NCBI GenBank assembly: GCA_951406725.2
Contig: OX597818.1
Coordinates: forward strand, 29,326,001 to 29,390,000
Direction: 5' to 3'
Source of the DNA: Octopus vulgaris
Taxonomy: Eukaryota
Length of the DNA: 64,000 nt
The notes under the pieces are model-generated. The model was not told the origin of the DNA and did no database searches. It saw only the letters and a program-made list of their open reading frames with translations. Shown in pieces: positions 608 through 61,558 of this stretch; the first letter of the stretch is position 1, and each line of letters opens with the position of its first letter. The position numbers were made by a program, and so were the translations under genes.

Positions 608-626
608 CTATCAAAAACAATAATGA
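608..626 (+). CDS. Host gene micro-exon 1 (19 nt, phase 1->2): xIKNNN(E)
   Basis: Long poly-T tract + gacAG acceptor, GTAAGT donor; frame joins the 2599 exon without stops. Confidence 0.65.
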
Positions 627-2598: not shown

Positions 2599-2615
2599 AT
2601 TTTCATCAACAAAAG
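2599..2615 (+). CDS. Host gene micro-exon 2 (17 nt, phase 2->1): EFSSTK
   Basis: ttttcttcaatttaatAG / GTAAGT; 19+17 nt restores phase 1. Confidence 0.65.
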
Positions 2616-13644: not shown

Positions 13645-13691
<47 letters not shown>

Positions 13692-19901: not shown

Positions 19902-19949
19902 CAATTAATACTATAGATGGAAGAGATCTTCAACATCGTAATACAGAAG
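19902..19949 (+). CDS. Host gene exon 3 (48 nt, phase 1->1): AINTIDGRDLQHRNTE
   Basis: Branch-like gctaat + ccatttgtttccAG acceptor, AAG/GTATTT donor, open in the chain frame. Confidence 0.6.
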
Positions 19950-21138: not shown

Positions 21139-21195
21139 ATGTACACGAGGTTGCCAATGCCATCTATGATTCATCTGGACACTTAACTGACCTAA
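21139..21195 (+). CDS. Host gene exon 4 (57 nt, phase 1->1): DVHEVANAIYDSSGHLTDL (NxxY)
   Basis: attttcAG acceptor; weak GTATAT donor; open, symmetric phase. Confidence 0.6.
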
Positions 21196-32068: not shown

Positions 32069-32110
32069 ATACGGAAGATATTTATGTTAATGTTACACAG
32101 AAACCTAACA
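32069..32110 (+). CDS. Host gene exon 5 (42 nt, phase 1->1): NTEDIYVNVTQKPN (YVNV)
   Basis: tttttatttcatctcttAG / GTAAGT, both strong. Confidence 0.8.
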
Positions 32111-38345: not shown

Positions 38346-39882
38346 ATCTATATGTATATATGCATGTCATCATTATCATCTAATGTCTGTTTTCCATGAT
38401 AGAATAGGTTGGACAGTTTGACAAAAGCTGTTAAGCAGGAGCTGCACTAAGCTGCAATTGTCTGTTTTGGCAAGGTTTCTATGGCTGGATATCCTTCCAA
38501 ATACCAACCACTTTACAGAATGTTGACACGTGCCGACCCCTTTACTGGGCCTCTGGAGATTCATGCCTGCTTAGTAATCATCTGACCCTCTTGCTAGATT
38601 GTTATGCTTGCCCTCCATCTCATCTCTTGTAGTCACTGTTCCATGTCACTTATGTAGTGAAAGTAAAGCTTTGTATCTGTGTATATTCAGTACTCTTCTC
38701 TACTTCTGACATCCATTTCATACTCCTCCCTTATCTAAATGAAGATGCTTGAGTTGGAAAAGATAGCATCGTATCTTTTGGTATCCAATGCACTTTTCAT
38801 TTGTTCTCTGAAGCTGCCCACCATTGCTACCTCTCCATTAAGTCAGCTGTCTCCCATTACTTCCTCTCCATTGGATCAATCTTTCATTGACATTCAACCT
38901 CTGTTTTCATCAATATCTTGACTGTTGATCAGTTGTGCTCTCTTTTACAAGCTAACCTTGCCACCTATTTCTATTGCAATGAAAATCTGGATATATGGTA
39001 ACATCACAAGTGCTGGTGCATTTAATGCATTTTGTGAAGTGTTTGATGCATGCGCAAATTTATCATAGGGTAAAATGTCTGTGACTAAATTACTAATTCT
39101 GTTATCATAAAAGAATATATCCAAAACTCTGTAAACTGTTTAGTAGATTTGCATTGAAGTATTGAGAGAACACTTTAGTCCTGTTTTGTCAAGGACATGA
39201 CAACCTTTTTAGTGCTGGTGCCATGGGAAAAAATGCACTTTGTACACACATTTTGCAATGGTTGATGTTATGAATGTAATCCAGTCTGAGAAACCACATA
39301 AACATGATAACATATGCAAGAGTTATGGTCAAGGGACCAAGCCTAGGTGGGATCTGATCCTGAACAGTCACTTTTTTTTTTTAAACAAGACTTCTCAACC
39401 AACCCTTGTCGGCATAGAAATCAAATGAAAAGTAACAATATTGGTGATGCTGGTGATGGCAGTGGCAAAGAAGAAGAAGAAGGGGAGGAGGAGGAGGCAG
39501 TCATTAAGCTAGAAATCTGCAAGCATTTTGGTTACTTTCCTTCTAGTAGAGTATACAATGTACAAAGATTTTGCAAACATTTTGGTTCATTCTTGCATTG
39601 ATTAGAGTATACAATTTAGTAACCTATATTGTAGCTTTGACAATGTGAATTTTACATTCATGTACATAATAAACTTTAGCTCTTGCAGACACTCAACTGT
39701 ATTAATGTAGTTTCCAAATGAAAAAGCAAAAATGGTGTAATATTGCTAACTCATACTAGTTTGTTCAAATATGTGTTTGAGGAAGTGAATATTTCTCATT
39801 AACATTAGTCCTGATACTTGCAGCACAATATATTTAAATATTATCTATAATTGTATGTTCTTTTTTTTTTAATTCCTTAAAG

Positions 39883-39924
39883 ATATGAATGCTAAAGTCA
39901 ATAAACCAGGAAAGAAAACTAATG
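39883..39924 (+). CDS. Array exon A (42 nt): NMNAKVNKPGKKTN, tyrosine-less
   Basis: ttaattccttaaAG / GTAAGC; in-frame 9-nt gap relative to the 51-nt copies. Confidence 0.75.
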
Positions 39925-40765
39925 GTAAGCATAATTATATTCAATTCATTAATATAAGTACATACATTTAGGGAAGTTTTAACTGACACTAGACAGTTGG
40001 GAAGAGAATATACACACTTTTAAGATAGAAACTGTGCCTTTATGAGATAGCCTGCTAAGGTCTAAAGCTCAGGTTAGTGGTTAGTGCAGGGACCCAACTA
40101 AGCATAAGTGACAAGTGGCAAAGTACTACTCAGAAATTCCCATAATAGCTAAGAGACACGATTGGATAAAATGAAAGTAAGGGTGTTTTATGTAGTACTA
40201 GAGAAGACTTGAAGGGCCAGTCTCAGAAACTACACCAAAATGAAATGATATGAGAGAATAATGATCAATAGTCTAAGCCAAGGTGTGTTGTGATAGCAAA
40301 AAGGAATTGATTTTAACTATGATGGCTTGACCAACCCATACTAGCATGGAAAGTGGATGAATGATGGTTATGATGACAATAATGACAACATAAATTAAGC
40401 AACATGTCAGCGAATATTTGGGCCTAGTTTCCTTTCAGTAGAGAAAACAGTGTAATAACCTACATATGAATATTCTTAAACAAAACTTTATAAATATGCA
40501 TTTTGTGTTACAAATATAAACTTTGCCTCTTGCAGATTTTCAAATATATTTTCACTATTTTCTATCTTTGTTAATCCTTTAATTGTACTTTACACCACTC
40601 AATGATACCCTGAAGTAAACAGATAAAAATTAAGTGAATTTGATAATTCTTACTTATACTACTTTGTACCTTTATTTATGTGAGAGAGTTAATGTTTCTC
40701 ATTAATATTAGTTCTGGCACAGCATTAATATATTTTAAATAATATCTTTCTTTAATTCTTTAAAG

Positions 40766-40816
40766 ATGTGAATGAACTTTATGCCAAAGTCAATAAACCA
40801 AGCAAGCAAGCTGATG
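40766..40816 (+). CDS. Array exon B (51 nt): DVNELYAKVNKPSKQAD
   Basis: ttaattctttaaAG / GTAAGC, phase 1->1. Confidence 0.85.
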
Positions 40817-42317
40817 GTAAGCCTAATTATATTCAGTCCATTCATAAAACTTCATAATCTTCAAGAGGTATTAACTGACACATATCACAAAGAATACTTG
40901 TGCTTTTATGGGACAATCTACTGAGCTCTAAAGCCAAGATCAATGGCTGGTTCAAGGTCCCAAATACAAAACAAAAAGTAACATGTGAAATACTATTTTG
41001 GAAATTAACATAACCACTAAGAGACAGGTTTGGAAAGAATGAAAGAAAGGGAGCTTTATGTTGTATGAAAGACTTGGTGAACCAACCTTAGAAACTACGC
41101 CAAAAATTTAATCAACCAAAAATGTTTTACTATATACAAAGAAAGACTGAACACAGTTACTACTACACAGTTTGAGTAGAAATAACAGCGTAATATAACC
41201 TAATACATAAACAAAAAAATTTTAATCTACATATTGCATTACATCTATTATAAACTTTACTCTTGGAGATTTCAAATATATCTTCCATGTTTTCTATATT
41301 AATCCTTAATAACATGTTAGGCCATCCAAATTGACAGACAGTCTGCAAGAGAGAAGAGACACTGGGTAGATGTATAGAAATTTAATAATTTACACAGTCT
41401 TTCTGATGACAATAGAAGAGAGTGAATTGACTCCAAGTGGAAGCAGCAGAGGTTCCAGCTATCTAATTTCACAGTATTACAACACGTGGAGCAATTAAAC
41501 AATCAAATTTAGGGAAGTTAGTTCATCTCTTGAGAGTAGCTTCTGAGAGATTTAGAAAATCCATGGGTCATTTAAAAATTATTTAAGAAAAGGATTAACC
41601 TGGATGAGATACTGTTTGGTTTTGTGCCAAGCTCTATCATTGAGATCATATTCCAATGAAGTACTTAGCTAGTAGTAAGTTCCTATACTAAGCATTTGTG
41701 AATTTAGAGAATGGGACTAACCTTTTGACTGAGTCATTCACTATCTGATCTGGTAGATGCCAAGGAAAATGGACTTAAATGGATAAGTTGTGTGATCCAT
41801 AGAAGCCATGTGCAGAATCAGTGTGAGCAAGTTAAGCAATAGCAATGAATTTAGTGTGCATATGGGGGTTTATCAGGACTCCGTGTTCAGCCTTTCCTGT
41901 TTATATAGGCTTCCAAGCTATAAAAGATGTATTTAAGACAAATAAACTTGGAAACACTTGTATGCTGATGGCTTAGCTTTTATATCAGAATTTGTAGAAC
42001 AATTGGGTCAGATAGAAATTCCAAAAATGATAGCAAAATCTGCACTTAAAAGATTTTAACTTGAATCTAGTAAAAACAAATGTTTTACCATGTAGGAAGA
42101 AAGACTGAGCAGACCCCATCAAGAAAATGAATGTGCTCTGTATGCAGGAAATGGGCTGAGTGTTACCAATCTAAACAATGCATACAGAAATTTCTGCTTA
42201 TACTTCTTTGAATATTTATGTATGTGAGGGAGTGAATGTTTCTCATTAATATTAGCTCTGATACTTTCAGCACAACATTACTATATTTAAATCATATCTT
42301 TCTTTAATTCCTTAAAG

Positions 42318-42368
42318 ATGTGGAAGACCTTTACGCTAAAGTCAACAAACCACGTATGCAAACTGATG
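42318..42368 (+). CDS. Array exon C (51 nt): DVEDLYAKVNKPRMQTD
   Basis: ttaattccttaaAG / GTAAGC, phase 1->1. Confidence 0.85.
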
Positions 42369-43515
42369 GTAAGCATAATTATATTCAGTCCATTCATAAA
42401 ACTATATAAACTTTAAGAGATATTAACTGATACATATAACAGAGAAAATATGAGACAATCTGCTGAGGTTGAAAGTACAAATCAATGGTTGATGCAAGGT
42501 CCCAAATAAAAAAACACAGTAACACATAAAATACTACTTTGGAAATTACCATAACAGATAAGAAACAGATAAGGTTTGGAAATGGTGAATTTAGAGAAAA
42601 GAACAAACTCTTTGACTTAGTCATTCAGTATCTGACCAGGTAGATGCTAAGGAAACTGGACTTACACGAATAGGTTGTGTGAGTCATACAAGCCTTGTGC
42701 AGAATCATTGTGGGTAAGGTCAGCAAATAGCAATGAATTTAGTATGCATATGGAATTTTTCAGGACTCAGTGCTCAGCCTTCCTGCTTATTTAGGCCACT
42801 AAAGTATGAAAGAGGTATTCTCAACAACTCACCTTGGAAACTAATACTAATGACTCTGTTGAACAATTATTCTTTTACTTGTTGCATTCATTTGACTTTA
42901 GTCAGAGAGTGGAGGTAAGGGAGCTTTATATAGTACCAAAGACTTGATGGTCCAGCCTCACCGAAATGAGATGATATGAGAGTATTATGATATGTGGATC
43001 AAGCCAAGGTGTGTTGTGATAGCAAAGATAAACTGGTTTTAATTATGATCGCTGGACAAACCTATGCTAGCATTGACAGTGGTTGATCAATGAGAATGAT
43101 GATAAGATAAATTAAGCAAAGAGTTAGCAATTATTTAGGCCAATTTTCCTTTGAATACAAAGCACAGTGTTATATAACCTACATAAAACAAAAGTTTACA
43201 AATGTGTATTTTGCATTACATGTAAACATAGATTTTCATGTGTATGAACAATTTTTACCTTTATTAATCTTCAGTTGTACTTCACTATACCACTCAATGT
43301 CTTTTATTCTATTGTTTTTTTTCTGTTAATTTGGTAATGATAATCTGAGCTAAATGAAGAAAATAATATTATATTACTAATCCCTGCTTATACAACTTTG
43401 AATGTATATGTGTATGAGAGAGTGAATGTTTTTCATTAATATTTGTTCTGATACTTTGAATATATCCTCAATATATTTTAAATGTTATCTATAATCATGT
43501 CATCATTTTTTAAAT

Positions 43516-43566
43516 TTGTGGTCAATCTTTATCCTAAAGACAATACAAGTAAGAAGAAACCTGCTG
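43516..43566 (+). pseudogene. Degenerate array exon D (acceptor AG->AT); possible 27-nt exon 43540-43566 DNTSKKKPA
   Basis: Homologous to the 51-nt exon (NLYPKDN..); donor GTAAGC intact; internal ctttatcctaaAG in phase. Confidence 0.65.
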
Positions 43567-45293
43567 GTAAGCATGATTATGTTCAGTTCATTAATATAAC
43601 TAACAAGAGTTTGAGAGGTTTTAACTAACATATATGACAAAAATTATGTTTCTATGATTATAACAGTAGATTATAACAACCTTTACTGAACCATATGCTG
43701 AACTCTATAGATTAGATAAGTGGCTGGTGCAAGGTGACACACACTGAGACAATATTATAGGTAGCACCATAACAAGTGAAAGACTTGTAGAAAGGAGGCA
43801 TTAAGGAAAATATCAAACAACTAGAGAAGCCAAATTGTGGCTATACATAGCAAAGGGAAGGGCAAAAAAAGCAGAAGTTTGCATGTATTATGCAAGATGA
43901 GGATCAAACATGCAAGTCCATCCAAATTGGCTGACAGTCTGCAAGAGAGAAGAGGCATTCTATAAATATATAGATTAACAATGGCTTCCTCAGTCTTACT
44001 GATACCAAAGTAAAGACTGAATTTATTCCTAGTAGAAGTAGAAGGTCTAACAGCATTCCAGTTTTACAGTTTCATGACAGTGCAATTAAAGAATGAAAAG
44101 GTAGGAAATGTAGCTGCTCTCTTGAGACTAGATATTTAGAGGTTTAGAATATCCATGGGTTATTGGAAAGTTGATTAAGTATAGTATCAATCTGGATATG
44201 ACAAGAAGCTGTATCATTGAGCTCATATTCCAAATGAAATATATACAAGAGGTACTTAGCTTTGAGTAAGCTCCAATACCAAGCATTTGTGAATTTGGAG
44301 AAAGGAACAAACCCTTTGACTTAGTCATTTAGTATCTAACCTGGTAGATGCTAAGGAAACAGGACATATATGAATAGGTTGTGTGAGCCATACAAGCCTT
44401 GTGCAGAATCATTATGGGCAAGGTGAGTAATAACAATGGATTTAGTGTGCATATAGGGTTTATCAGATCTCAGTGCTCAACCTTCCTGCTTATTTAGGCC
44501 TCCAAACTATGAAAGAGGTATTCTCAACAACAAACCTTGGAAATTAATACTAATGACTCTGTTGAACAATTATCCTCCTACTTGTTGCATTCGTTTGACT
44601 GCAGCCATGCTGGTACACTGCCTTTTAGTCAAAGAGTGGAGGTAAGGGAGCTTTATATAGTACCAAAGACTTGAAGGTCCAACCTCAGAAACTACACCAA
44701 AATGAGATGATATGGGAGAATTATGATGTGGATGAAGCCAAGGTGTGCTGTGATTGCAAAGAGGAACTGATTTTAATCATGATCACTTGACAAACCTTTG
44801 CAGGGCATCAACAGTAGTTGATCAATGATGATGCTGATGATGACAAAATGCTGACTAATGATGACAAAATGAATTAAGCAAAGAGTTAGCAAATATTGAT
44901 CAATTTTTCTTTGACTAGGGACAACAGTGTAATATAACCTACATAAAACAAAAGTTTATAAATGTGCATTTTGCATTATATATAAAATTTACTCATATAG
45001 ATTTTGGAATGTATATCAACAATTTTTACGTTTATTAATCCTTAATTGTACTTCATTATCCCACTCAATATTTTTCATTGTTTGTTTTGTTTTAATTTGG
45101 TAATGATAATCTGAGCTAAATGGGGGAAATAATGTAACTTTCCTATTTCCTACATATACAGCACTGAGTATATTTGTGTATGAAGGAGTGAATGTTTCAC
45201 ATTGATATTTGTTCTGATACTTTCAATGCTTCATAAATATATTTTGAATATTATCTATAGTCATATGTCATTTATTTTTTTAACTCTTTAATT

Positions 45294-45344
45294 TAGTGTA
45301 TAATTTTTATCTTAAAGACAATACAAGTAGGAAGAAGCCTGCTG
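45294..45344 (+). pseudogene. Dead array exon E
   Basis: Homologous to D; ancestral acceptor lost and donor GT->AT (gctg/ataaac). Confidence 0.7.
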
Positions 45345-46186
45345 ATAAACATGATTATGTTCAGTTCATTAATATAACTAACAAGAGTTCAAGAGGTATT
45401 AACTAACATATATGACAATATATATGACAAAAATTATATATCTAAGACAGATTATACCAGAAGATTATCTGCAGTATTTATGGCACTATGTACTGAACTC
45501 TGTAGATTAGATAAGTAATGGTGCAAGGTGGCACACACTGAGACAATATTATAGGTAGCATCATAACAAGTGAAAGACTTGTAGAAAGAAGGCAATGGGG
45601 AAAATATCAAACAACTAAAGAGAAGCTAAACGTTGGCTATACATAGCACAAGGAAAGACAAAATAACAAAAGTTGGCATATATTGTGCAAGATGAGGATC
45701 AGTCATGCAAGTCCATCCAAATTGACTGACTGTTTGCAAGAGAGAAGAGACACTGGATAGATGTATAGAATAACAATGTCTTCCTCAGTCTTACTAATGC
45801 CAAAAGTAAAGAGAGTAAGTTTATTCCAAATAGAAGCAGAAGAGCTACCAGCATTCCAGTTTTACATGCACAGACGCAATTATTGAAGTACTAAATGGCA
45901 CGTCAAATGATATTTAATCGTGTGGAACATTTTACATGCATATCAATATTCTAAAGTTGGACCTACTATCCCTTATCCTAAAGCTGCTTCAGACAATTAG
46001 GAAGGGTTCCCGACTCGTTTCACCGTCTGCTTTCAATCTTGGATTGTGATTCGGCTCAGCCCAAACTCTCTCAGATTTTGTCTGCTGTTGCCTACTCCTA
46101 CAAGGATTGCAGCTGTTTTTTGTTCCTGATTTAACTCAGATTTGTCCTAGAGCCCATAGAAGATTGTTTTTGGTCAACCATCTATC

Positions 46187-47356
46187 ATGTCAGCTACCTA
46201 CAGATCGAAACTGAGATCTGCAAGAAGGGCTTCTCATCAAGATGATGGTCCTACCAATAGTCAGCTCAACGAGCAGTTGCTGTTGCTCAAACAAGAGGTC
46301 GAGCACCTAAAGTCTGTTGTTGCTCTTTTACTGAATAAACAGTCTCCTATTGATGCAGAGCCACCCTTGATTTCTTCCCTGGAGACATCCAAACCGAAGG
46401 GAACAAAATCGAAGCGGCCAAAGAAGGCGAAGGAACCGGCGGTCGTTTCTGCACATGATCGTTCCTGTGCGGATTCTTCCTCATCTGCCTTTTCGGTCCC
46501 GGAGGTTCCCCAACCTAATTTGAGGAGTGTAGACTCAAACCCACCTGAAGACCGTTGTTCTCCCCAAAAGAAGAAACGTAGTCAAAACTCCAGTGGGGCA
46601 GATTTAGCTATGAAACCTGATCACGATAAAATCTGTTTGGATTCTCCCTCACTTGTCCTTCCCATTAATGCCATTGCTCAACCAATTCTGAACGATCTCG
46701 ATGTGAGTTCATCTGGGGAGTGGTGCTCCCCCAAACCGAAGAAGAGGCAGTGCAGTTCCAAACCAGGCAGGAAAGTTATGACCACTAAACCCATTCCGAT
46801 CGACCCCACAGGCCGACATAAGTCTGATGGCTATGAAACCACCCTTTCGAAATCATCCAACGAAGAATCGAATACCGCAGCTCATAGTAGAGAACATTTT
46901 GCCCACTCAAGATCAGCAATAATTTATGGTAAAGCTGAATCCACCTGTGATACAGGCATAAACCGCCTAAAAGAAGACATTAATTTTGTTTCCATTTTAG
47001 TTGGAGAATTGTTCTCTGTCAACGAAAATGTCAGTATCCATAAGGTCGCTCGGCTAGGAAGATTCCAAGCGAACTCAACCTCAGATACTAGACCACGCCC
47101 AATAAGGGTAATCTTTTCTTCCGATCAGGAGGCTTCAACCTTTCTGAACAGAGCTCAGACGCATGTCTGGGAGGACCCCAATATGGGTTTTCGCGAGGAA
47201 TACTCACTGAGAGAGAGAATTCGCTGGAGAAACCTAATATCCGAACTAAAGATGACAAAACAGATGGGAGAGAAGGGTTTACGCATCCAAGACGGACAAA
47301 TAATCAAGTCCTACCTCTGGTCGCATGCTGTAGTGCTGACAGGGAAAGTGAATTGA
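46187..47356 (+). CDS. LINE ORF1 protein (389 aa)
   Basis: N-terminal coiled-coil-like segment; C-terminal AIIYGKAES..RLGR..RPRPIRVIF typical of CR1/L2 ORF1. Confidence 0.85.
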   Translation: MSATYRSKLRSARRASHQDDGPTNSQLNEQLLLLKQEVEHLKSVVALLLNKQSPIDAEPPLISSLETSKPKGTKSKRPKKAKEPAVVSAHDRSCADSSSSAFSVPEVPQPNLRSVDSNPPEDRCSPQKKKRSQNSSGADLAMKPDHDKICLDSPSLVLPINAIAQPILNDLDVSSSGEWCSPKPKKRQCSSKPGRKVMTTKPIPIDPTGRHKSDGYETTLSKSSNEESNTAAHSREHFAHSRSAIIYGKAESTCDTGINRLKEDINFVSILVGELFSVNENVSIHKVARLGRFQANSTSDTRPRPIRVIFSSDQEASTFLNRAQTHVWEDPNMGFREEYSLRERIRWRNLISELKMTKQMGEKGLRIQDGQIIKSYLWSHAVVLTGKVN

Positions 47357-50242
47357 GGGCAAATCGAAGTGAAGTAGATACCCCCGTCAACGATGCTATC
47401 TCTGATACCCCTTATTCTGCTTGTTCCCCAACTCCCGCCCCTCAAACTTCACAGCTCAGCATCGTCTATACCAACTCGTGCTCCTTATTTCCAAACTTCA
47501 GCGAACTATTTACACTGGCCATACGTGACTCCCCTGATGTGATAGCTATCACCGAGACTTGGCTGACTCCAGCAGTAAAGGACTCAGAAATCCACCTACA
47601 GGGCTACGTCCTCTTCAGATGTGACAGAGAAAAAAAGGCGAGTTGGAGGTGTTGCTGTGTATGTTAAATCTGATCACAAACCGTCCAGCGGTATTCTACC
47701 CACTAATGCTCAACCTACAACAAAATTCGATGCCGTCTATTGCAAGCTGAACCTATCCGAGTTTTGCCTGCCCGTGTTAGCTGTTTACAGGCCGCCTCTT
47801 GCCGACCCCCAGGACGATGCTCATTTACTCGAAGCGATAAGATTCGTTTCAGCTTCGCATGACTGTTTGATACTAGGAGACTTCAACGCTCCCACGATCG
47901 ATTGGCCCGCATCAATTTGTACAACATCTTCCCGGTTCGACCAGGCCCTTCTTGGCATGGCTGAAGATTGTTTTCTATCGCAACATGTTGAATATCCGAC
48001 AAGGCATCGGTCTGGGCAGCAGCCATCTATGCTGGATCTGGTATTCTCCCGCTATCCAAGATCAGTGTCAGACGTATCTGTGTGCGCCCCTCTTGCCAAG
48101 AGTGATCATGCGGTCCTGAAGTTCATCATGCACACAACTTTTTCTACGCCCACGACTACTTCGCTGCCACGTGGAGTCTTCTCTGCAATTAATCTTGAAA
48201 TTCTAACCGAGGCTTCCGCGCTTCTGGACTGGCGATCCCTGATGACGCTGTCCTCAGTTGACGAACTATGGTCATCCCTCAAAGCATATGTAATCTGGTT
48301 GACTGACCAGGCAGTTCCCGTTGGGCTTCCCATGAAGAAGAAACACAAGCCCTGGGTGACAAAGAAGGTTAAACGAGAACTTCGACTCAGAGATATTGCT
48401 TGGGCTGAATTCAAAAATCTGGATTCGACTGCAGCTTTTGAGGTGTACAAAACTCAACGAGACCGAGCCGTGAAAATTGAAAAGGAAGAACGCTTCAGTT
48501 ATGAATACAAAATCGCGGCAAATGCCAGTAGCAATCCAAAAACCTTCTTTGCCCATGTCCAATGGAATTCCCGCTTGAACAACCAGATTGCAACGTTGGT
48601 AGACTCAACAGGCGTATCGATTGAGGACCCTTATCAACAGAGTCAATTATTTGCTGAGGCTTTTTCAACTATTTTCAAACAAGATGATGGTCGTGAACCC
48701 CCTCCATTTGATAGATCGGTACCTCCAATGCTTCAATTGGTCATCACGCGGGACGAAGTCAAACGTGTTATTCAAGGCCTCGATGTCAACAAGGGTCATG
48801 GCCCTGACGGCATACACCCACAGGTTATCAAAGCATTGGCTCCAGTCATCTGCGAGCCCTTAACACATCTATTCAATATGTCATTGGCGACGGGTGTTAT
48901 ACCTGCGGACTGGAGAACAGCGATAATCTGCCCAATTTTCAAGAAAGGGAGCCGCGAAGACCCGCTTAACTACCGACCGGTTTCCCTTACATCAATAATC
49001 AGCAAGATGTTCGAAACCATCCTGAAGAAAAGTATGATGCTCCACCTCCAAAACACAGCCTCTATCTCTGATTCCCAACACGGCTTCGTGCCGAAGAGAT
49101 CATGCTTGACCAACTTACTGGTAATGGAAAAATTGGTGATGCGCATCCTCGATGATAGTGATGCTGTTGACATCGTTTTATTGGACTTTGCCCAAGCTTT
49201 TGACTCGGTAAACCACCGCCTATTACTTGTCAAGCTTCAAGCATATAGTTTCCATCCGGATATTGTACGATGGGTTGGTGCCTTCCTCTCAGATCGCTCC
49301 TTCCAAGTCCAAGTTAATGGTTCGCGGTCCGACGTCTCCAGTGCGAGCAGTGGCGTGCCTCAAGGTTCAGTGCTTGGGCCCTTATTGTTCTTAGTCTTCA
49401 TAAATGACTTGCCCGACGACCTCACGCAACACACCCTTCTATTTGCCGACGATATCAAACTGGTCGCTCCTCGCGGTGATATAGAGGATCTTCGTCGATG
49501 CCTCCACCAAATTTGGAGGTGGTCTAACGAATGGGACCTGTGTCTGAACGTGTCAAAGTGCTGTCATCTGCCTATTGGCTCTCCTCCTGCAACGCAACTT
49601 GATTTCGAGCCGGGTCGTCTGCTGCTGGAGAGGACTGATCAGATAAAGGACCTGGGTATCTTGGTGGATTCCTCATTTTCGCCTTCGGCCCAGTGCGTCC
49701 ATGCTGCCAACAAAGCACGCGGAATTCTGTTCTTGATTCGACGGTCATTCGGAATGCTCACAGCAGCCATATTCCTACCACTCTATGTCACGCTGGTGAG
49801 ACCCATATTGGAGTACGGGATTCAAGCATCTTCTCCTTATCTCCTCAAAGACATACAGCATCTCAAAAGAGTCCAGAAGCTGGCTACCCGCATGGTTCAT
49901 GGTCTCAAAAATTTGTCCTATGAAGAAAGGCTGAGGACGCTCGACCTTTATTCTCTAGAAAAACGCCGCCGCCGTGGTGATCTCATTCTCGCCCACAACA
50001 TCATAAGTGGAAAGTGTAACCTCTCGAAAGAGCTGTTCTTCACTCCTGCCCCAGAGCGTCGGCTGCGGGGTCATTCCAATAAGCTCTACCTGCAACGATT
50101 TCATCTCAATCGAAGGAGAGGAGCTTTCTCCGTCCGGGTTGCGGATCCGTGGAATAAGCTGCCAGACGAGATGGTGAAGATGCCGACGACCGCTTTGTTC
50201 AAAGCCTCCCTTGACCTCAAGTGGCCTGAACTCTTTACATGA
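47353..50242 (+). CDS. LINE ORF2 AP-endonuclease/reverse transcriptase, single +1 frameshift at A7 run 47630-47636
   Basis: YTN, ITETWL, GGVAVYV, LGDFN, SDH; NYRPVSLTS, QHGF, GVPQGSVLGPLLF, FADD, YEERL..RRRRGDLI. Confidence 0.92.
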
Positions 50243-51172
50243 ACACCACCCTGTACTTAACTCTATGTCCCCCTACATGGCCTTGCTATTTGCTTTTGAG
50301 CCAAATTAACTAACTAACTAACTAACAGCGTTATAACAGCACAATTGAACAATGTAAAGATAGGGAAAGTAGCTGGTCTCTTGAGACTAAATATATAAAA
50401 ATTTGGAATATCCATGGGTTATTAGAAAGTTGATTAAGAATAGGGTTAACTTGGATATGCCAAGAAGCTGTATCATTGAGATCATATTCCAAATGAAATA
50501 ACTACAAAGAAGTACTTAGCTAGGAGTAAGCTCCTATACCAAGCATTTGTGAATTTGGAGAAAGGGACAAATCCTTTGGCTGAGCCATTCACAATCTGAT
50601 CTGGTAGTTGCTAAGGAAACTGGATTTTGATGAATTGGTTGTGTGAGCCATACAAGCCTTGTGCAGAATCACTGTGAGCAAGGTGAGTGATAGCAATGAA
50701 TTAAGTGTGCATATGGGGGTTTTCAAAACTCAGTGCTCAGCCTTTCCTGTTTCTTTAGGCCTCCAAGCTATATAAGATGTATTTTAGATAGATAACTTTC
50801 AAAACACATGTATGCTGATGATTCTGCTTTTATATCAGAATCTGTAGAAAAACTGGGTCAGATAGAAATTCCAAACATGATAGTAAAATCTGTATTTGAA
50901 GGGCATTAAATTTAATCTAGCAAAATATAGGAAGAAAGACTGGACTCAGATACCATCAGGAAAATGAATGTGCTCTTTATGCTGGAAATGAGCTGGTAGA
51001 AATATCATAAGGTGTTCCCAGTGTAAACAATACATACATACGTTCCTGCTTATACTTCTTTGAATATTTATGTATGTGAGGGAGTGAATGTTTTTCATTA
51101 ATATTAGTTCTGATACTTTCAGCACAGTATTACTATATTTAAATCATCATATCTTTCTTTAATTCCTTAAAG

Positions 51173-51223
51173 ATGTGGAAGAACTTTATGCTAAAGTTAA
51201 CAAACCACGTATGCAAACTGATG
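51173..51223 (+). CDS. Array exon F (51 nt): DVEELYAKVNKPRMQTD
   Basis: ttaattccttaaAG / GTAAGC; closest paralogue of exon C. Confidence 0.85.
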
Positions 51224-52053
51224 GTAAGCATAATTATATTCAGTCCATTCATTAAACTATATAAACTTCAAGAGATATTAACCGATATATATAACACAGA
51301 CAATCTGCTGGGGTTTAAAACCAAAATTAGTGACTGGTGCAAGGTCCCAACTAAAAAAACGCAAAGTGACACATAAAATCCTACTTTGGAAATTACCATA
51401 ACAGATAATAGACAGGTTTGGAGAGAGTGAACGTAAGGGAACATTATATAGTACCAAAGACTAATGAAAGTCCAGCCTCAGAAACTACACCAATATGAGA
51501 TGATAAGAGAGAATTATGATCAGTGGATCAAGCCAAGGTGTGTTGTGACAACCAAGAGGAAATGGTTTTAATTATGATGGCTTGACAAACCCATGACAGT
51601 CTTTGATCAATGTGATGACAATGGGGGCAATGATAATGACAAGATAAATTAAGCAAATAGTTAGCAAATATTTAGGCCATCTTTCCTTTCAATAGAGATG
51701 CCACTGTAATATAACCTACATAACACAAAAATTTATAAATGTGCATTTTGCATTACATGTAAACATAGATTTTCATGCGTATTAACAATTTCTACCTTTA
51801 TTAATCATTAATTGTACTTTATTTTATCACTCAGTGTATTTTCATTCTTTTGTTTTTTCTGTTGATTTGGTTATGATAATCTGAGCTAAATGGAGAAAAT
51901 AATAATATATTACTAATTCCTGCTTATACAACTTTGAATATATATGTGCATAAGAGAGTGAATGTTTTTCATTAATATTTGTTCCGATACTTTCAATACA
52001 TCATTTTAAATGTTATCTAGAATTATATGTCATTATTTTTTAACACCTTAAAT

Positions 52054-52104
52054 TTGTGTTCAATTTTTATCCTAAAGACAATATAACTAGGAAGAAGCCT
52101 GATA
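52054..52104 (+). pseudogene. Degenerate array exon G (acceptor AG->AT); possible 27-nt exon 52078-52104 DNITRKKPD
   Basis: Paralogue of D; GTAAGC donor intact; internal tttttatcctaaAG in phase. Confidence 0.65.
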
Positions 52105-53442
52105 GTAAGCATGATTCAGTTCATTAATATAACTAACAAGAGTTCAAGAGGTATTAACTAACATATATGACAATACATATGACAAAAATTATATATCTAA
52201 GACAGATTATAACAGAAAAAAATCTGCAGCTTTTATGGTACCTCATACTGAACTCTATAGATTAGATAAGTGATGGTGTAAGGTGGCACACAGTGAGACA
52301 ATATTATAGGTAGCATCATAACAAGCGAAAGATTTATAGAAAGGGGGCAATGTGGAAAATATCAAACAACTAAAGAGAAGCTAAATTTTGGCTATACGTA
52401 GCACAAGGAAAGGTAAAATAACAAAAGTTTGCATATATTGTGCAAGATGAGGATCAGTCATGCAAGGCCATCCAAATTGCCAGGCAGTCTGCGAGAGAGA
52501 AGACACACTTTAGATGTATAGAATAACAATGGCTTTCTCATTCTTACTGATGTCAAAAGCAAAGAGTGAATTTATTCCAAGTAGAAGCAGAAGAGCTACC
52601 AGCATTCCAGTGCAATTGAAGAATGAAAAAGTAGGAAATGTAGCTGGTCTCTTGAGAATAGATATTTAGAGATTTACAATATTCATTCGCTATTGAAAAA
52701 TTGATTAAGAATAAGATTAACCTGGATATGCCAAGAAACTGTATCATTGAGCTCATATTCCAAATGAAATAACTACAAATAAGTATTTAGCTAGGTGGAA
52801 GTTCCTATACTAAGCATTTGTGAATTTGGAGAGTAATTTGGACTGAGTAATTCACTATCTGGTCTGGTAGATGCTAAGGAAACCAAACTTACACGAATTA
52901 GTTGTGTGAGCCATAAAAACCGTGTGCAGATTCACTGTGAGTAAGGTGAGCAATCGCAATGAATTTAGTATGCATATAGGTTTTATCAGGACTCAGTGTT
53001 CAGCCTTTCCTGTTTATTTAGGCTCCAAACTATGAAAGATGTATTTTAGACAACCTTGAAACACCTTTATGCTTATGACCTAGTTTTTATAACAGAATCT
53101 GTAGAACAGTTGGGTTAGGCAGAAATTCCAAACATGATAGCAAAATCTGCATTTTAAAGATTTTAAATTGAATCTAGTAAAAACACATTTTTTACCATAT
53201 AGGAAGAAAGACTGAACTCAGATACTATCAGGAAAATGAATGTGCTCTTTATGTAGGAAATGAGCTGGTAGAAATTTCATAAGGTGTTCTTAGTGTAAAC
53301 AATGAATACATAAGTTCCTGCTTATACTTCTTTGTACCTTTATGTATGAGAGGGAGTGAATGTTTTTCATTAATATTAGTTCTGATACTTTCATCACAGC
53401 ATTAATATATTTTAAATAAAATCTTTCTTTAATTCCCTAAAG

Positions 53443-53493
53443 ATGTGAATGACCTTTATGCTAAAGTCAATAAACCAAGCAAGAAAACCTATG
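53443..53493 (+). CDS. Array exon H (51 nt): DVNDLYAKVNKPSKKTY
   Basis: ttaattccctaaAG / GTAATT, phase 1->1. Confidence 0.82.
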
Positions 53494-54315
53494 GTAATTA
53501 TATTCAGTCTATTAAGAAAACTACATAAACTTCAAGAGTTATTAAGTAATACATATATACATATAACACAGAAAACTTGTACTTTTATGGAAGAATCTAT
53601 TGAAGTCTAAAACCAACATCAGTGGCTGATGCTAAGTCCCAACTAAGCATATGTGACATGTGGTGAAGTGCTACTCAGAAATTACAATAACAGCTGAGAA
53701 AATTTGGAAAGAATTAAAGTAAGAGGGGCTTTATGAAGTATTAATGATGTGAAAGGTCAGCCTTAAAAACAACACCAAAATGAAAAAATATGAGAGAATT
53801 ATGATCAGTGGATCAGACCAAGGTGTTTTGTGATAGCAAAAAGGAACTGGTTTTAATTATGATTGCTTCACAAACTCATGCTAGTATGGACAGTGGATAA
53901 ACAATGATGAAGGTTATGGTGGCGATGATAACGATGGTGGTGATAAGATGAATTAAGCAAAGAATTAGCAAATATTTAGCCCCTTTTTCCTTTGAATAGA
54001 AACAAGTTATGTAACCTTATACATGAACAAAAATTCATAATTGTGCATTTTGCATTATTTCTATCATAAGCTTTGCTCTTGTAGATTTTCAAATTTATCT
54101 TTAATATTTTCTACCTTTATTCTTCTTTAATTGTACTTTACACCATTCAGTGGTTTTTTTTTTCTATTAATTTCATAATAGTATTAAGATGTAAATGGAG
54201 AAAATAATATGATATTGTTAATTCCTACTGTTAGTTCTGTTAGTTTCAGCACAATATTAATATATTTTAAATAATATCTATAATTGTATGGGATTTATTT
54301 TTTAATTTCTTAAAG

Positions 54316-54360
54316 GTGTGAATGATCTTAATGTCAATAAACCAAGCAAGAAACCTGAAG
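54316..54360 (+). CDS. Array exon I (45 nt): GVNDLNVNKPSKKPE, tyrosine-less
   Basis: ttaatttcttaaAG / GTAAGC; in-frame 6-nt gap removes the YAK core. Confidence 0.75.
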
Positions 54361-54999
54361 GTAAGCATGATTATACTCAATCTATTAATGTAACTAAATA
54401 TATCTAGGGAGGTATTATCTGATACATGAGAATAAGAAAGAGAATGTACATACTTAGAACATGACAGAAAACTTAAATGTTTATCAGACATCCTGCTGAG
54501 TTTTAGAGACTGGTTCAGTGGCCTGTGATAAGTCCCAAATAATTTAAGGTGACATGAGATGAAGTACTACTATATACAGCACCATAACAGCTAAGAAATA
54601 AAATTATAAAAACTAGGTGAAAGTGAAGTATTATGCTGTACTAGAAAAGACTTAAAGGCCCAGTTCCTATGTAAACTTGGAGAAATCTATGTCAAAATAA
54701 GAGGAGCAGTATTTATGAAATATACTGAAAATATGGCACATATGTATATAAATATAGGTATAAATTTATGTTTGCAAGTATGTGTGTATATCTGGGCCTA
54801 TGCAAAATTACACCTGCTAAGTCATCATCTTCTGCTCCTTTTGCCAATTTCATGCTACCACCCTCCATTTCATCTCTTCTACTCACTGTTCCATGCTACC
54901 TATTAAAGGATTTGAAAACATTGGATCTGTGTATATTCAATATTTAGTACCCTTTTCTATATCTAACATCCATCCATATTATACTTCTCCCTTCTCTAA

Positions 55000-57160
55000 T
55001 TATCCATAGGTCCCAGCCTGAAAAATCCTCTGGAATAGACCAGTTGATTCTCATCAATTACCAGAGTTTCATTGAATGTTGTCACACTTACCCACCACTA
55101 ATTCTCTATAGAACACCAAAGTAAAACTTCCACCAACTGCATTGCCCAACTGACAGGAGACTGTGAGTGCCTGAAGACACTCTAAGTACTAGGTGCTCTG
55201 CTTTAGTCTACTCTTGATCCACAACCACAACTCAGTTAAAGAAATGAGCTTTGGAAGAGCAAATCTGACTAACAGCAACCCCACCTTCTCACTAGCAAGG
55301 AAGCATTGGGGTTGTCATAGCCTCAGTGCAAGTCTGTGTATCAGCAGCCACAACATGCCCAGTCGTCCATTCAGCAAGTATTGACAGCAAATGGAGTGCC
55401 TGACCAGTGGAGAATATCCCCTCCACAGAAAGCAGAAGAATATATTCTCCAGTTTGATCAGACATAAACTGGGGTGAGGCATGATGGTCAGGCAGTAATA
55501 TATGATGTAGGCAATATATGCATTCACCACCTCTGCCTGACCTTTCAGAAACAACTTTTTCTCAGCCCATTTCTGGGTGAGATTGGCCACCCTGCATTCA
55601 AAATGTAAAAGACCTTGGAAAAAATACTGCAACAGGATTTGTCCAATGCACCAGTGATTCTTCTCTATCTGGAGGTCCAGACCAAAACCCAAGTAATTTA
55701 ACTAGTCCCTCCATCCAACATCCCATGACATTATTGGATGGCATGGACTTGCCTCTCCAGACGCCAAACTTTAAGCCCACTGACTGCCCTCAGTTAATTT
55801 TCACTCCTGTTATTGCTTCATATTCTTTTAGAACAATGCCAATCAGGTTCGTGTTCAACACTATGACAGTGACATCATATGCATATGCTGACTCAGTTCT
55901 TCCACATCCTAGTTCACATTGGATGTTTCTCAATGCCTCCAGTTTCCACTGTAGTTGCCTTAGAGTCAATACATTCAGAAGAGATGAGAGGAGACACTCT
56001 TGGCAAGCCAAGTACATGGTGCTGAATAGTTCCAATAAGTAACCATTCACCTAATCTATTGAGCAGATGTCATTGTACATTGCAGCAATCCAACCATGGT
56101 AAATGGCACTGAAACTGGCCACCATGAGAATAGCCACCAAATATTGGTGGTCGATCCTATTATTGAAGGCTATTGAGAGATCCAAATTGATCAGTTGTCA
56201 CCCATGCCAGCTTCTTTATCTACTATGTCTATGATATATCACATAAGTGGAGGTTGTCATGGACAGATCTGCTTAAGATGGTACATGTTTGCACATCTCC
56301 AATCAGCTCCTTGACAACAAGCACCAACATTTTGCTAACACTTTGGCCAAAATTTTTTAATCTGCATTCAGCAGCATAATAGGCCTAAAATGTTCTATTT
56401 GATGCCCTTTGTTTGAGTCCTTGACCTACAGAACTAGGAATTCTCCCATTCTGCTGCTAGTTGTGGTAGATATATGCTAAGAGGCCACCAAACAAGTCGG
56501 GCATATGAAAGTAAATCTCATAGAGTAGGCCATCCAAACCAGGCAATTTGCCCCCCCCCCTCCCATGCAGCATCCATCATTGCATCTTGTGTTTCTGGGA
56601 CTGTTATCAGCCTTTTGTGATGTGATGCTCCACCTACCTTAGCAAGAGTTGTAGTATACCATCAAAGTAGGCACTGAAGATCCATCCTACATTCCAGACT
56701 GCTGTTCATCCCAATCGGCTGAGTAAAGTGCTGTTGAAATGCTGCAATCATCTGCTCATGTTCAAGTACCAAGCATCCATTTTGGTTCACCAAAAACCAA
56801 ATTGTGGCTTTGTTGCCACATTGTGCCTCTTCCACTGAGGCCTATCAGGTGGTTTTTGTTCCCTCATTTCTTAGAGCATGCATCTTAGCTTTGATAAGGC
56901 ATCCTTCATGCTTAGTGTTGAAGAACTGGTCCAGGGACAATCTCACCATGAGCACATCAGTTTCAGTGCCCTTCATAAGCACTTCTAAGTTATCCTCCAT
57001 TTTATTTCTTTCTGTTACTTATGCCTTACTAAACCTAATGGATTCTGCTCTAATTGCCCTTTTCAGAGCAAACTACCAATTGTTGTTGAGGACTGACTCC
57101 ATCAACGCCTGCTTAACTAATACACAGATCCAGTCTGTAGGTTTGGCACACCAAAAGTGA
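55000..57160 (-). mobile_element. Decayed L1/Tx1-clade LINE
   Basis: SAYAYDVTV (YADD), LKEYEAITGVKIN, KLLGFW, FFCFLWRG..NGRLGML. Confidence 0.75.
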
Positions 57161-58132
57161 TGCATTCAGCTTCCTATGAGGCCTATTTAGGTCAACTGTG
57201 CAGATTGCAAGTTTCTGGTCTGTGTAACTGACAATAGCTTTCAGCATTGTCATTGAGTGTTTTATTGTCTTTTCTTCCATACAGAATCTTAACTTTACTG
57301 TACCATACTTTCTTCCCCTGGTGACATAACTTTTAATAATCCAGACTGGTCTTAGACATTTTTCTTTGTCTTTTTCTGTGAACATTTTTCTATGCCTTTT
57401 TCTGTCATCTGTTCTAATTCTTTTATTTTAATAGTAATTTTTCTATAAGTAACAGTATTTGGTTTTGCCTTTTGTTGGACACAGAACAGGATTGTTAACT
57501 TTGTGTCTTTCTTGTTTCATTAACATGTATTTTGCTTGTTTTAATTTATCTACCTGGATAGTGATTTTTTTCTCTTGTATTCAGTGGACAATATTAGCAA
57601 AGGCAGTGATGGGTGAGTTGTCTGTTGTGTCTTCTAATTGTGGTGGCAGCAAAGGTGGAAAATGTTGGCGTGTTGGTCAGACAGTTTTAAATGCTCATAT
57701 CATTTTCACATTTTTGCTTCTGTAAAGGTTCTTGTTGATTTCATGTTCTTTCTCATTTGCTTAGTTATTGCTATTTTTAGTATTGTGGTTGTTATTGTTT
57801 TGATTGTCACTGACTGTGGTAGTAATAGTGGTGGTGCTAGTGATGCTGATTTGAGCCAATGGTGGGGAAGCTATATCAAAATTTTCTTTTTCTTTTTTTT
57901 TATCTTGTTTGAAAAGGGAAGATTTATGGTCAAAAGCTCTGCAAGTATTTTTTCAAATTTTTGTTGATTCAAAAGTTTACTCCAATATTTTTTTTGTATC
58001 ATCCTTCTGTAAGCTAACAAATCTTTGTGAAGTTAGCTTCATTCAATTTCAGCCCTTTGGTGTCTGAAACTGTTTATCATTTTCAGACTGACCATATTTG
58101 AAATAACAATAATAACAGTAATAACAATAATG

Positions 58133-58501
58133 ACAAGAGCACCCAGAGAGCACAAACCTCCACCAAGGCAACACCAACGTCCTCAAAACGATTAGCCGGA
58201 GATGATTTTTAAAATGAGAATATCTGAAATAAACTCAACTGCTCTCACAAACGAGAATACTAAAAATGAACCCAACCGCTCTCAAAAATTAAGTAAAAGA
58301 CAGGAAAAAATAATCCAGAATCCTTGCCCAGTACTGGATCAATCCCAAAAGTGAAATCAGTTCATGCCAGTCATGAGGCCAAACATCCCTGAAAGTTTCA
58401 TCCAAATCCATCCAGCGGTTCTTGAGATGTCTTGTTCACGGACAAACAAACAAACAAACATGACTGAAAACAATACCTCCGCCTTCGCTTAGGTGGAGGT
58501 C

Positions 58502-58503
<2 letters not shown>
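58133..58503. mobile_element. Helentron-associated (HINE/DINE-like) non-autonomous element followed by (AAT)n (58502-58625)
   Basis: Subterminal acctcc.cc at both ends, terminal hairpin acctccgcct..aggtggaggt, internal (CAAA)n. Confidence 0.55.
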
Positions 58504-58537
<34 letters not shown>

Positions 58538-58591
58538 GTAGTTGTAGTAGTAATAATAATAATAGTAGTAGTTATAATAATAATAATAGTA

Positions 58592-58626
<35 letters not shown>

Positions 58627-58779
58627 TCATACTTCTCAATCTTTCTCTCCATTAGTTTGTATGATCCTAAAATAAAAGGGGGAAAATAATGCAGTATTGC
58701 TAATTCCTACAATGTTTGTTTGTATTCATTGTGTTTAGGTAGTTACTGAAGAAATTAAAGGTACATGAATGACTACTGA

Positions 58780-59500
58780 GTGCCTCGCCACCCATGTAGA
58801 GAAGCTCAGTCAACAAGGTGAAAACCAGCAATGAGTTCAGTGATGAATCTAATGTGCATGTAGGGACTTATCAGAACTCAGTTCTCAGCCTTTCCTGCTT
58901 ATTACAGTCCTCCAAGTCATAACTGAGGAATTTGAGACCAGCTATCATTAGGAACTCTTGTATACTGATAGTTTAGCTCTTAACAGCAGAATCTGTTGAA
59001 AAACTGGAGCAGAAGTTCTAGACATGAAAGCTAAACCTAGAATTGAGGAACCTTATATTAAACTTTGAGAAAAACTAGCATTTTAGTAAGTAAGAAGGGA
59101 AGCAGGACCTTGATACCATCAGGAAAATTACCCATTCTCCATGCAGGAAAGGAATCAAGTGGAATTCTTTGATGTGAGCCTAGTGTAAAGTGTAAGCAAA
59201 GGACAAATGAGGTGTGGTGGGGTAATATATAGGTTAAAGTAGAAGATAAATTTCATATACAGAAGGATCATTAGAGAAACAAACACTGAAAAGCTCTCAG
59301 GATGTAAATTCTCTCTAATGCCCAGATGTCTCCTTAGAAGTAGCTGGTAACCTTTGTTACCAATCTGTCTTAACAACCAAATAGGTGTTCAGATTAAAAG
59401 TTCAGGGAGTTATTATCTTTGTTGGGAACAAAGGGCTTCTCTCCAAAAATGAAGGGCAAATTTTCTGATGTTGATATGCAGAGTCCAACACTACACACTT
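58780..59500 (+). mobile_element. Degenerate RTE fragment
   Basis: Similar to RT ..gtcctccaagtcataactgaggaatttgagacc..ctcttgtatactgat of other copies. Confidence 0.65.
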
Positions 59501-59696
59501 TTTTACTTAATTTATGTGATTTCCTAAGGTAAATGAGGAATATAATATAATATCACTAATTACTACTTATACTACTTTATATATGTAAGAAAGTGAACAT
59601 TTTTTATTAATATTTATCCTGGTGCTTTACATACTACATTAAAATATTTTAAATGTTATTTATAATTATGCCATTTTTTTTTTTAATTCCTTAAAG

Positions 59697-59747
59697 ATGT
59701 GGATGATTTTTATGCTAATGTCAATACACCAAGCATGAAACCTGATG
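59697..59747 (+). CDS. Array exon J (51 nt): DVDDFYANVNTPSMKPD (YxN)
   Basis: poly-T aattccttaaAG / GTAAAA, phase 1->1. Confidence 0.8.
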
Positions 59748-59807
59748 GTAAAACATGATTATATTCAATTCATTAATATAACTACATTCATTTAGCAAAG
59801 AGTAAAT

Positions 59808-60240
59808 CATCGTCATCGTTTAATGTCCATTTTCCATGTTCGCATGGGTTGGACGGTTTGACTGAGGACTAGCAAGCCACTAGGTTGCATTAGGCTCCAA
59901 TCTGATCTAGCAAGGTTTCTACAGCTGGATGCCCTTCCTAATACCAACCACTTCGACAGTGTAGTGGATGCTTTTTTATGTGCCACTGGCATTGGGAGCC
60001 AGTCAAGCAGCACCAGCATCAACCATGTTTGGATGGTGCTTTTTACATGCCACTGGTACAGATGCCAGTCAGGGGGCACTGACATCAACCACATTTGGAT
60101 GGTGCTTTTTATGTGCCACTGGCACGGGGAGCCAGTCAGGTAGCACTGGCATCGACTCACCCTAAATGGTGCTTATTACGTGCCACCAGCATGGGTGCCA
60201 GTCAGGTGGCACTGGCATTGGCCACAACTCCGATTTCCAT
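59808..60240 (-). mobile_element. RTE 3' end with ~59-bp tandem repeats
   Basis: ggatggtgcttttt.atgtgccactggca..agccagtcagg units; (CAT) tail. Confidence 0.8.
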
Positions 60241-61032: not shown

Positions 61033-61088
61033 AAACAGAAGATGGTAGCTTGAATGACAATTATGAAAGCAACAATCAAAGTAATGAG
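61033..61088 (+). CDS. Penultimate exon (56 nt, phase 1->0): ETEDGSLNDNYESNNQSNE
   Basis: ctaaatatctAG / GAG|GTAAAT; supplies the phase switch the last exon needs. Confidence 0.75.
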
Positions 61089-61435: not shown

Positions 61436-61558
61436 CCTGAATCTGTCCAAGAATGTAACTATGCAGAACTTGAGTTTCTAAACAATCCTGGAACAAGCAA
61501 ACCAGCACCAAAACCTGTAGAAGAAACTATTTATGCTGATCTAATATTGGACAGTTAA
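61436..61558 (+). CDS. Terminal coding exon: PESVQECNYAELEFLNNPGTSKPAPKPVEETIYADLILDS* (ITIM/ITSM-like pair)
   Basis: ttctttttttaattcaatctAG acceptor, phase 0, 41 codons to TAA. Confidence 0.85.
   Translation, partial: PESVQECNYAELEFLNNPGTSKPAPKPVEETIYADLILDS

Follow-up and report, generated by a model that had tools for sequence, protein, structure and literature searches.

A tandem array of YAKVNKP micro-exons in the cytoplasmic tail of an octopus immunoglobulin-superfamily receptor: a candidate multi-site dock for Csk

Introduction

Docking sites for Csk, receptor tails with immunoreceptor tyrosine-based inhibitory and switch motifs (ITIM and ITSM) and spliced tail exons are already known. 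Here we analyze a locus of Octopus vulgaris at which a tandem array of micro-exons, four of them encoding the tyrosine motif LYAKVNKP, lies in a gene for an immunoglobulin (Ig)-superfamily receptor. The stretch of DNA analyzed, called the window below, comprises 64,000 nucleotides (contig OX597818.1, positions 29,326,001 to 29,390,000 of the forward strand); all exon coordinates are window positions on the + strand.

Like PECAM-1 and receptors of the SIRP/CEACAM/Siglec type, the octopus protein combines several Ig domains with one transmembrane (TM) segment and a dual ITIM-type tail. The PECAM-1 cytoplasmic domain is encoded by eight exons and is alternatively spliced, skipping of exon 14 removing SHP-2 binding, and in the available text of the same source its tail exons are not described as tandem copies of a motif exon (PMC5664058). 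PECAM-1 also differs in having no four-fold Csk-type array. PAG/Cbp, LIME, SIT and Dok-1 share a membrane-bound pY-[A/S]-x-V site, which in PAG (Y317) ends in VNKP (Table I of PMC2194115), but they have 1-2 sites and little or no ectodomain, whereas the octopus gene has four identical sites, one per exon, in a large Ig receptor. The YAKVNK core is the same as that of Helicobacter CagA at Y899, EPIYAKVNK (Table 1 of PMC2999339), and repeated DLYAKVNKP occurs in Bartonella Bep effectors; in contrast to these, the octopus gene lacks the EPI prefix and has introns, and the likeness is confined to the short motif. Moreover, the variable repeat of CagA is mainly EPIYA-C, an SHP2 site (PMC3593179, in the passages available).

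The octopus gene family also recalls Hydractinia Alr and the Botryllus fester co-receptors (FcoRs), clustered multigene receptors with activating and inhibitory tyrosine motifs, which in the FcoRs are switched by allele and by splicing (excerpts of PMC9546547 and PMC11507803). Those systems use ITIM as well as immunoreceptor tyrosine-based activation motifs (ITAM/hemITAM) rather than arrays of Csk, Grb2 and PI3K type such as would derive from one amplified micro-exon; they are not homologous to the octopus family as far as tested. In a shark CEACAM5-like receptor (P0127) and the Capsaspora membrane protein CAOG_03119 (P0163), both unrelated to the octopus receptor or related to it only at the Ig level, the tail closes with 3-4 Y[AS][KQR]V[NHS]K sites in tandem. 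The octopus receptor belongs to none of the PECAM-1-type, Alr or FcoR families.

Self/non-self and immune receptors of cephalopods are poorly known. A first-pass annotation of the window knew of no description of such an array in cephalopods, and we likewise found none of the gene or its cluster in the literature searched, which included queries with five locus identifiers, most subscription papers and supplements lying beyond its scope. The available parts of two reviews (PMC11999971, PMC13428168) held no cephalopod receptor passage of relevance, and the literature matches listed for YAKVNK, judged by their titles, all concern H. pylori or bacterial effectors. That annotation had proposed an array of Csk docking sites tunable by copy number and splicing; it did not take in the gene family described here, nor the host gene with its terminal ITIM/ITSM-like pair. 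On balance, and with modest confidence, we favor a different reading: the four co-spliced LYAKVNKP sites would form a mostly fixed multi-site dock for Csk and, together with the terminal pair, would make this gene the inhibitory member of an octopus receptor cluster. This family-level design is of more interest than the CagA parallel.

Results

Between 39883 and 59747, the window holds ten homologous copies of an exon with its flanks (nhmmer, E 2e-69 to 1e-16; next match E 2.9). A profile built on all ten retrieved no further copy in 264 kb, apart from a distant relative at 32069..32110 (nhmmer E 0.005-0.017), a 42-nt, phase 1->1 exon of the gene model that encodes YVNV, presumably a Grb2-type site. 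AG and GT stand at homologous places in seven of the ten copies, giving lengths of 42, 51, 51, 51, 51, 45 and 51 nt; the homologous AG is lost in copies 4, 5 and 7, and copy 5 also lacks the GT. Thus the ten homologous exon copies of the first-pass annotation stand as ten homologous segments, but the exons seen in spliced contigs number eight, and it is these eight that are all phase 1->1 and divisible by three in length, as had been claimed for the whole set.

Four copies encode (E/D)LYAKVNKP, as first read from the sequence: copies 2 (40766..40816, ELYAKVNKP), 3 (42318..42368, DLYAKVNKP), 6 (51173..51223, ELYAKVNKP) and 8 (53443..53493, DLYAKVNKP), all 51 nt long and spliced, with strong and similar splice sites (15-16 of 20 pyrimidines, donors 7/9). 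One further used exon, copy 10 (59697..59747, 51 nt), carries YANV within FYANVNTP and is absent from the gene model. Deletions have removed the tyrosine from copies 1 (39883..39924, 42 nt, MNAKVNKP) and 9 (54316..54360, 45 nt), which are nevertheless spliced. Copy 4 (43540..43566) has lost its original acceptor and is spliced at an inner AG, giving a 27-nt exon that lacks the Tyr and is also missing from the public gene model. Copy 5 (45294..45344) is a pseudo-exon that has lost both acceptor and donor, and copy 7 (52054..52104) has lost its original acceptor and has a weak donor; an inner AG is present in copy 7, and its use was not seen in the contigs of four runs. Every copy has such an inner AG in its YAK codons: in the decayed copy 4 it rescues the in-frame 27-nt exon, and the intact copies hold the same latent acceptor, the use of which would remove the Tyr in frame.

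Exon use was read from contigs of four public runs, from four studies, mapped to 39860-59850; the tail exons flanking the array fall outside this stretch. The runs are not on record as RNA, and we treat them as such because their GT..AG joints span introns. The joints 1>2, 2>3, 3>4, 4>6, 6>8 and 8>9 are present in all four runs, with copy 4 joined on both sides and copies 5 and 7 joined across, while the joint 9>10 is present in one run of the four. In three runs the path 1-2-3-4short-6-8-9 lies at one contig depth throughout, and all four LYAKVNKP exons are co-included in the assembled path of every study. No joint skipping a YAKV exon occurs among the 15 of 22 joints listed for these runs, a result that cannot show the absence of skips, because contigs drop minor isoforms and 390 loose ends lie beyond the joints listed. 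Copy 10 is likely a cassette exon.

Because the array exons are too short for a protein search, the terminal exon served as the protein query. This 40-codon exon at 61436 retrieves a single protein, CAI9722608.1, an uncharacterized O. vulgaris protein of 794 aa with the layout of a type I Ig-superfamily receptor: Ig domains (Pfam Ig_3, I-set, Ig_2 and C2-set_2 above cut-off), one TM segment (aa 551-569) and a cytoplasmic tail. Seven exons of Ig type can be recognized upstream, with the TM exon ~10 kb ahead of the window, and a motif scan of 264 kb gave no convincing phosphatase, kinase or EGF-repeat host gene. The public model uses six of the ten array copies and leaves out ~130 aa of Ig sequence that is present in the genome. 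Within this single-pass Ig-superfamily receptor, the array supplies the middle part of the cytoplasmic tail. The first-pass view of a host-encoded array holds in these respects: spliced RNA contains its motif, which lies in a membrane receptor's tail and varies in its core by synonymous changes only.

The last coding exon (61436..61558), which has one real match in the genome, encodes an ITIM-like CNYAEL and an ITSM-like TIYADL, forming a tandem pair of an upstream Yxx[L/V] and a C-terminal TxYxx[I/L/V]. The two tyrosines, Y763 and Y787, are 24 residues apart, and the spacing of tandem ITIM/ITSM-type motifs is about 22-27 residues.

The cytoplasmic region contains four matches to pY-[T/A/S]-[K/R/Q/N]-[M/I/V/R], the peptide-library consensus for the Csk SH2 domain (Table I of PMC2194115), and the array residues from +1 to +6 lie close to the known Csk sites in that table; the likeness to PAG and the fit to the consensus seen in the first-pass annotation are both borne out. 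The extended pattern Y[TAS]xV[NQC]K occurs in 0.1% of shuffled tails. Csk is bound by EPIYA-A/B and by BepE, according to the accessible part of PMC3593179. The octopus motif is (N/E)(E/D)LYAKV in a membrane receptor rather than E-P-[I/L]-Y-A, and related motifs are found well beyond octopus: Y[AST][KQRTL]V[NHS]K occurs in 10 of 190 proteins, a set enriched by searching with the host protein itself, with carriers that include the shark CEACAM5-like receptor (four sites), the Capsaspora membrane protein (three) and Bartonella effectors. When the tail was searched against 5.8 billion proteins, the best matches came from Bartonella effectors that have a BID domain and in which DLYAKVNKP is repeated (E 0.015-0.3). 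YAKVNK is not special to octopus, and the identity of its core with that of CagA, correctly pointed out before, is convergence on a widespread host motif, not descent; repeated YAKVNK would be an ordinary host design that bacterial effectors have copied. Genome-wide (2.8 Gb), the YAKVNKP codon pattern has seven matches, four of them in the array; the three outside it have no evident exon context, equal the count in the reversed control (3) and were set aside.

A relative in Argonauta (GAB1598814.1, 45% identical) keeps the order of tail motifs, YATVN, YALVNK, a YxN exon, YADL and TIYADI, with terminal tyrosines Y872 and Y897, 25 residues apart. This conservation gives independent support for constraint on the motifs. 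Csk-type sites number two in the Argonauta model, compared with four in the O. vulgaris gene.

The last Ig exon is present at no fewer than 11 loci, that is, at least seven on C5 (27.4-29.4 Mb), two on C28 and two on C31, and the Ig regions of the host gene are 86-93% identical to those of its closest paralogs, the clustering and ectodomain similarity of a paired receptor family. Among coleoids, we compared 12 related tails, the species sampled being O. vulgaris, O. sinensis, O. bimaculoides and a cuttlefish and some of the models partial or fused: YAKVNK or TxYxx[ILV] occurs in none, YxN in 11 and YxxM in nine. YxN is a Grb2 site and YxxM a site for PI3K p85. In the searches carried out, a single locus had the tail type of the host gene. 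The array profile matches YxN exons of paralogs together with their flanks (E down to 1e-18, two paralog regions), and the array unit is homologous to these exons. Motif classes differ sharply between paralog tails, yet the tails are mixed, and what they would signal is deduced from their motifs.

The array arose by tandem duplication of an exon-plus-intron unit. The units carry 0.2-1.7 kb of intron each, are mostly 66-84% alike and have a longest exact repeat of 61 nt. In a DNA tree of 22 rows (one paralog row being cut 2 nt off), the array copies fall into a single clade of ten (98/95), within which copy 10 is deepest and the four with YAKV cluster together (94/92). Derivation of YAKV from YxNV through one N-to-K change is a guess that fits this tree; the YATV and YALV of Argonauta leave the direction open. 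Pairwise comparison of the four YAKV exons gives 13 synonymous and no non-synonymous differences in the eight core codons, versus 7 synonymous and 29 non-synonymous differences in the eight flanking codons; counted by hand per column, the figures are 4/0 in the core and 2/8 in the flanks (P 0.015).

Discussion

We propose that ligand binding or clustering of the receptor would lead Src-family kinases to phosphorylate the acidic-x-Leu-Tyr sites, that the Csk SH2 domain would then bind pY-A-K-V, and that Csk held in this way at the membrane would shut off Src kinases. The distal ITIM/ITSM-like pair may in addition engage tandem SH2 domains, likely recruiting an SHP-type phosphatase. Duplication and decay in the course of evolution, not everyday splicing, would determine the number of sites: copies 1, 4 and 9, having lost their Tyr, would remain as spacers, copies 5 and 7 would go unused, and splicing would mainly toggle copy 10 and with it a YxN site. 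An opposing Grb2/PI3K output on similar ligands could come from paralogs whose arrays are of YxN and YxxM type, and the family, judged from its motifs, may work like paired activating/inhibitory receptors.

Several observations weigh against this proposal. CNYAEL falls outside the canonical ITIM consensus, [S/I/V/L]xYxx[I/L/V], owing to its Cys at -2, which is shared by Argonauta. The split between inhibitory and activating tails is not clean, because the host tail also has YVNV and paralog tails have YATI and some ITIM-pattern matches; nor is K versus N a clean switch, because the loose Csk consensus also admits YANV/YANI, found in three paralogs. The YATV and YALV sites of Argonauta miss the strict library consensus at +2. 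Ectodomain trees leave orthology to Argonauta unsettled (approximately unbiased test, AU p 0.20 and 0.18), and because they did not reject a clade of the host gene with Argonauta, we claim no ectodomain homogenization; the proteins of O. sinensis and O. bimaculoides yielded no orthologous tail. The codon comparison is partly circular, because the four copies were picked for having the motif. Finally, in run X9 the path splits into contigs of depth 30.7, 60.5 and 29.1, steps that may reflect a second isoform or haplotype; bin-depth arithmetic, tried on this run, gave no separation of allele from isoform.

A wider proposal, which we hold tentatively and consider possible rather than probable, is that coleoids have a paired-receptor system with its output written in micro-exons, its dose and sign being set by copy number and splicing and the host gene acting as the single brake; one ancestral Tyr exon would have been amplified independently in each paralog and retuned at pY+1/+2, to YAKV for Csk in one gene and to YxN for Grb2, with YxxM exons in between, in the others, all beneath nearly identical ligand-binding domains. 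The paralog models have long Tyr-rich tails and, by eye, TM segments without a central charged residue; in this they differ from the vertebrate pattern, in which the activating member has a short tail and, for an ITAM adaptor, a charged residue in the TM segment. Should our reading of the gene be right, octopus would possess an Ig receptor family that is clustered, has activating and inhibitory members and includes one candidate brake, and would offer a natural series (two sites in the Argonauta model, four in octopus, and the YxN arrays of paralogs) for relating motif number and the +2 residue to SH2 choice.

The mostly fixed Csk dock must be set against the view taken in the first-pass annotation, that the number of Csk sites is varied across cells or individuals by skipping of YAKV exons or by copy-number alleles, a view that we regard as unlikely. 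The symmetry of all eight used exons, the presence of copy 10 in one run of four and its absence from the gene model, and the unexplained depth steps of run X9 speak for it, as do two paralogs: one in O. bimaculoides has eight RefSeq isoforms that differ, by annotation, at the C-terminus and in three tail segments (14, 20 and 14 aa), and a neighboring one has a tail (C5:28179137-28193854) made of three 4.7-kb units (YxxM, YVND and YGNI exons) with 96-98% identity. However, in-frame symmetry carries no weight as evidence for skipping, since exons further upstream in the tail are of phase 1->1 as well. Tuning by splicing is not seen so far, because the four LYAKVNKP exons, with splice sites that are strong and alike, travel together in all four studies. 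The copies are also old, with flanks that are mostly 66-84% alike, and this age speaks against rapid change in copy number at the array; such units, with no exact repeat beyond 61 nt, would be a poor substrate for unequal crossing-over, and intraspecific tuning through copy number is doubtful at this locus. Variable splicing and recent amplification do appear in the paralogs and probably at copy 10, and the C5:28179137-28193854 tail is the best place to look for copy-number variation.

It is similarly improbable that the sites are real phosphotyrosine docks with another SH2 protein as their main reader (of SHP2, Src-family kinase, Crk or Nck type), serving adhesion or neural wiring and not immune inhibition. 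EPIYA-like sites do bind several SH2 proteins (PMC3593179, in the part available). The nearest solved structures are weak matches to Robo, MAG and Dscam (E about 1e-6), and the tail mixes YVNV with YAKV. Against this stand the close tracking of known Csk sites from +1 to +6 and the repetition of Y-A-K/Q-V-N-K in the tails of the unrelated shark Ig receptor and Capsaspora membrane protein; furthermore, near-identical ectodomains in a cluster of fast-duplicating paralogs are more usual for recognition receptors. Neutral duplication, in which one Csk site is enough and symmetric exons survive by keeping frame while the extra copies decay, is very unlikely: five of the ten copies lack Tyr or are unused, a transposon lies inside the array and Argonauta has two sites, but all eight core residues are kept in four copies that differ by about 20-35% in their introns and flanking residues.

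Other features of the locus and of the gene family

The remaining tail exons of the gene lie on either side of the array. Gene model P0001 places a juxtamembrane micro-exon at 608..626 (19 nt, phase 1->2, aa 578-584) and a second micro-exon at 2599..2615 (17 nt, phase 2->1, aa 584-590), both with AG/GT and both placed by protein match and splice sites. The same model has a 48-nt exon without Tyr at 19902..19949, and a 57-nt exon with one Tyr (AIYDSS) follows at 21139..21195 in the gene model, both phase 1->1. The penultimate exon (61033..61088, 56 nt, phase 1->0, NYESN) is in the gene model and has a counterpart in Argonauta. The last exon and its 3' untranslated region were found in 20 of the 24 public runs listed. 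ESM Atlas gave no fold for the protein, its leads (SCIMP, LST1, C1orf162) all being under 0.9.

The insertion within the array is a long interspersed element (LINE) at 46160..50242 on the + strand, with open reading frames for a 398-aa ORF1 and an 887-aa endonuclease/reverse transcriptase ORF2, and is not part of the gene product. It is covered by contigs of all four runs; because these differ from it at many places, we conclude that the LINE family is transcribed from other copies too. The introns contain many SINE-like (short interspersed element) 66-bp repeats and LINE fragments, and an imperfect (CA/TACA)n tract of 1.7 kb occupies 12853-14594.

Among the relatives, an intronless, frameshifted copy on C15 at 67.916 Mb (L021:3762-4989) covers the ectodomain and TM segment and then stops; it shows two Ig stretches missing from the public model, both of them in the genome. 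We considered this copy as a fossil mRNA that might inform on the tail and rejected it, since it ends just after the TM segment and is a processed fragment. The loci at 8.04 and 10.69 Mb on C28 and at 6.8 and 9.2 Mb on C31 give equal scores for the last Ig exon, the four being very recent duplicates or assembly haplotigs. The tail region of the paralog with 4.7-kb units also contains, at C5:28205705-28210544, a ~503-bp tandem repeat of roughly ten copies with >99% identity, and the O. sinensis model P0004 has two units like the three of that paralog. YATI/YATL exons in the paralog tails P0002, P0014 and P0174 resemble CagA EPIYA-C (EPIYATIDD). Repeated tail motifs of other kinds occur in a cuttlefish relative (P0028, EPQYIN repeats) and in a catfish receptor (P0136), the tail of which has about 14 YATAEL repeats.

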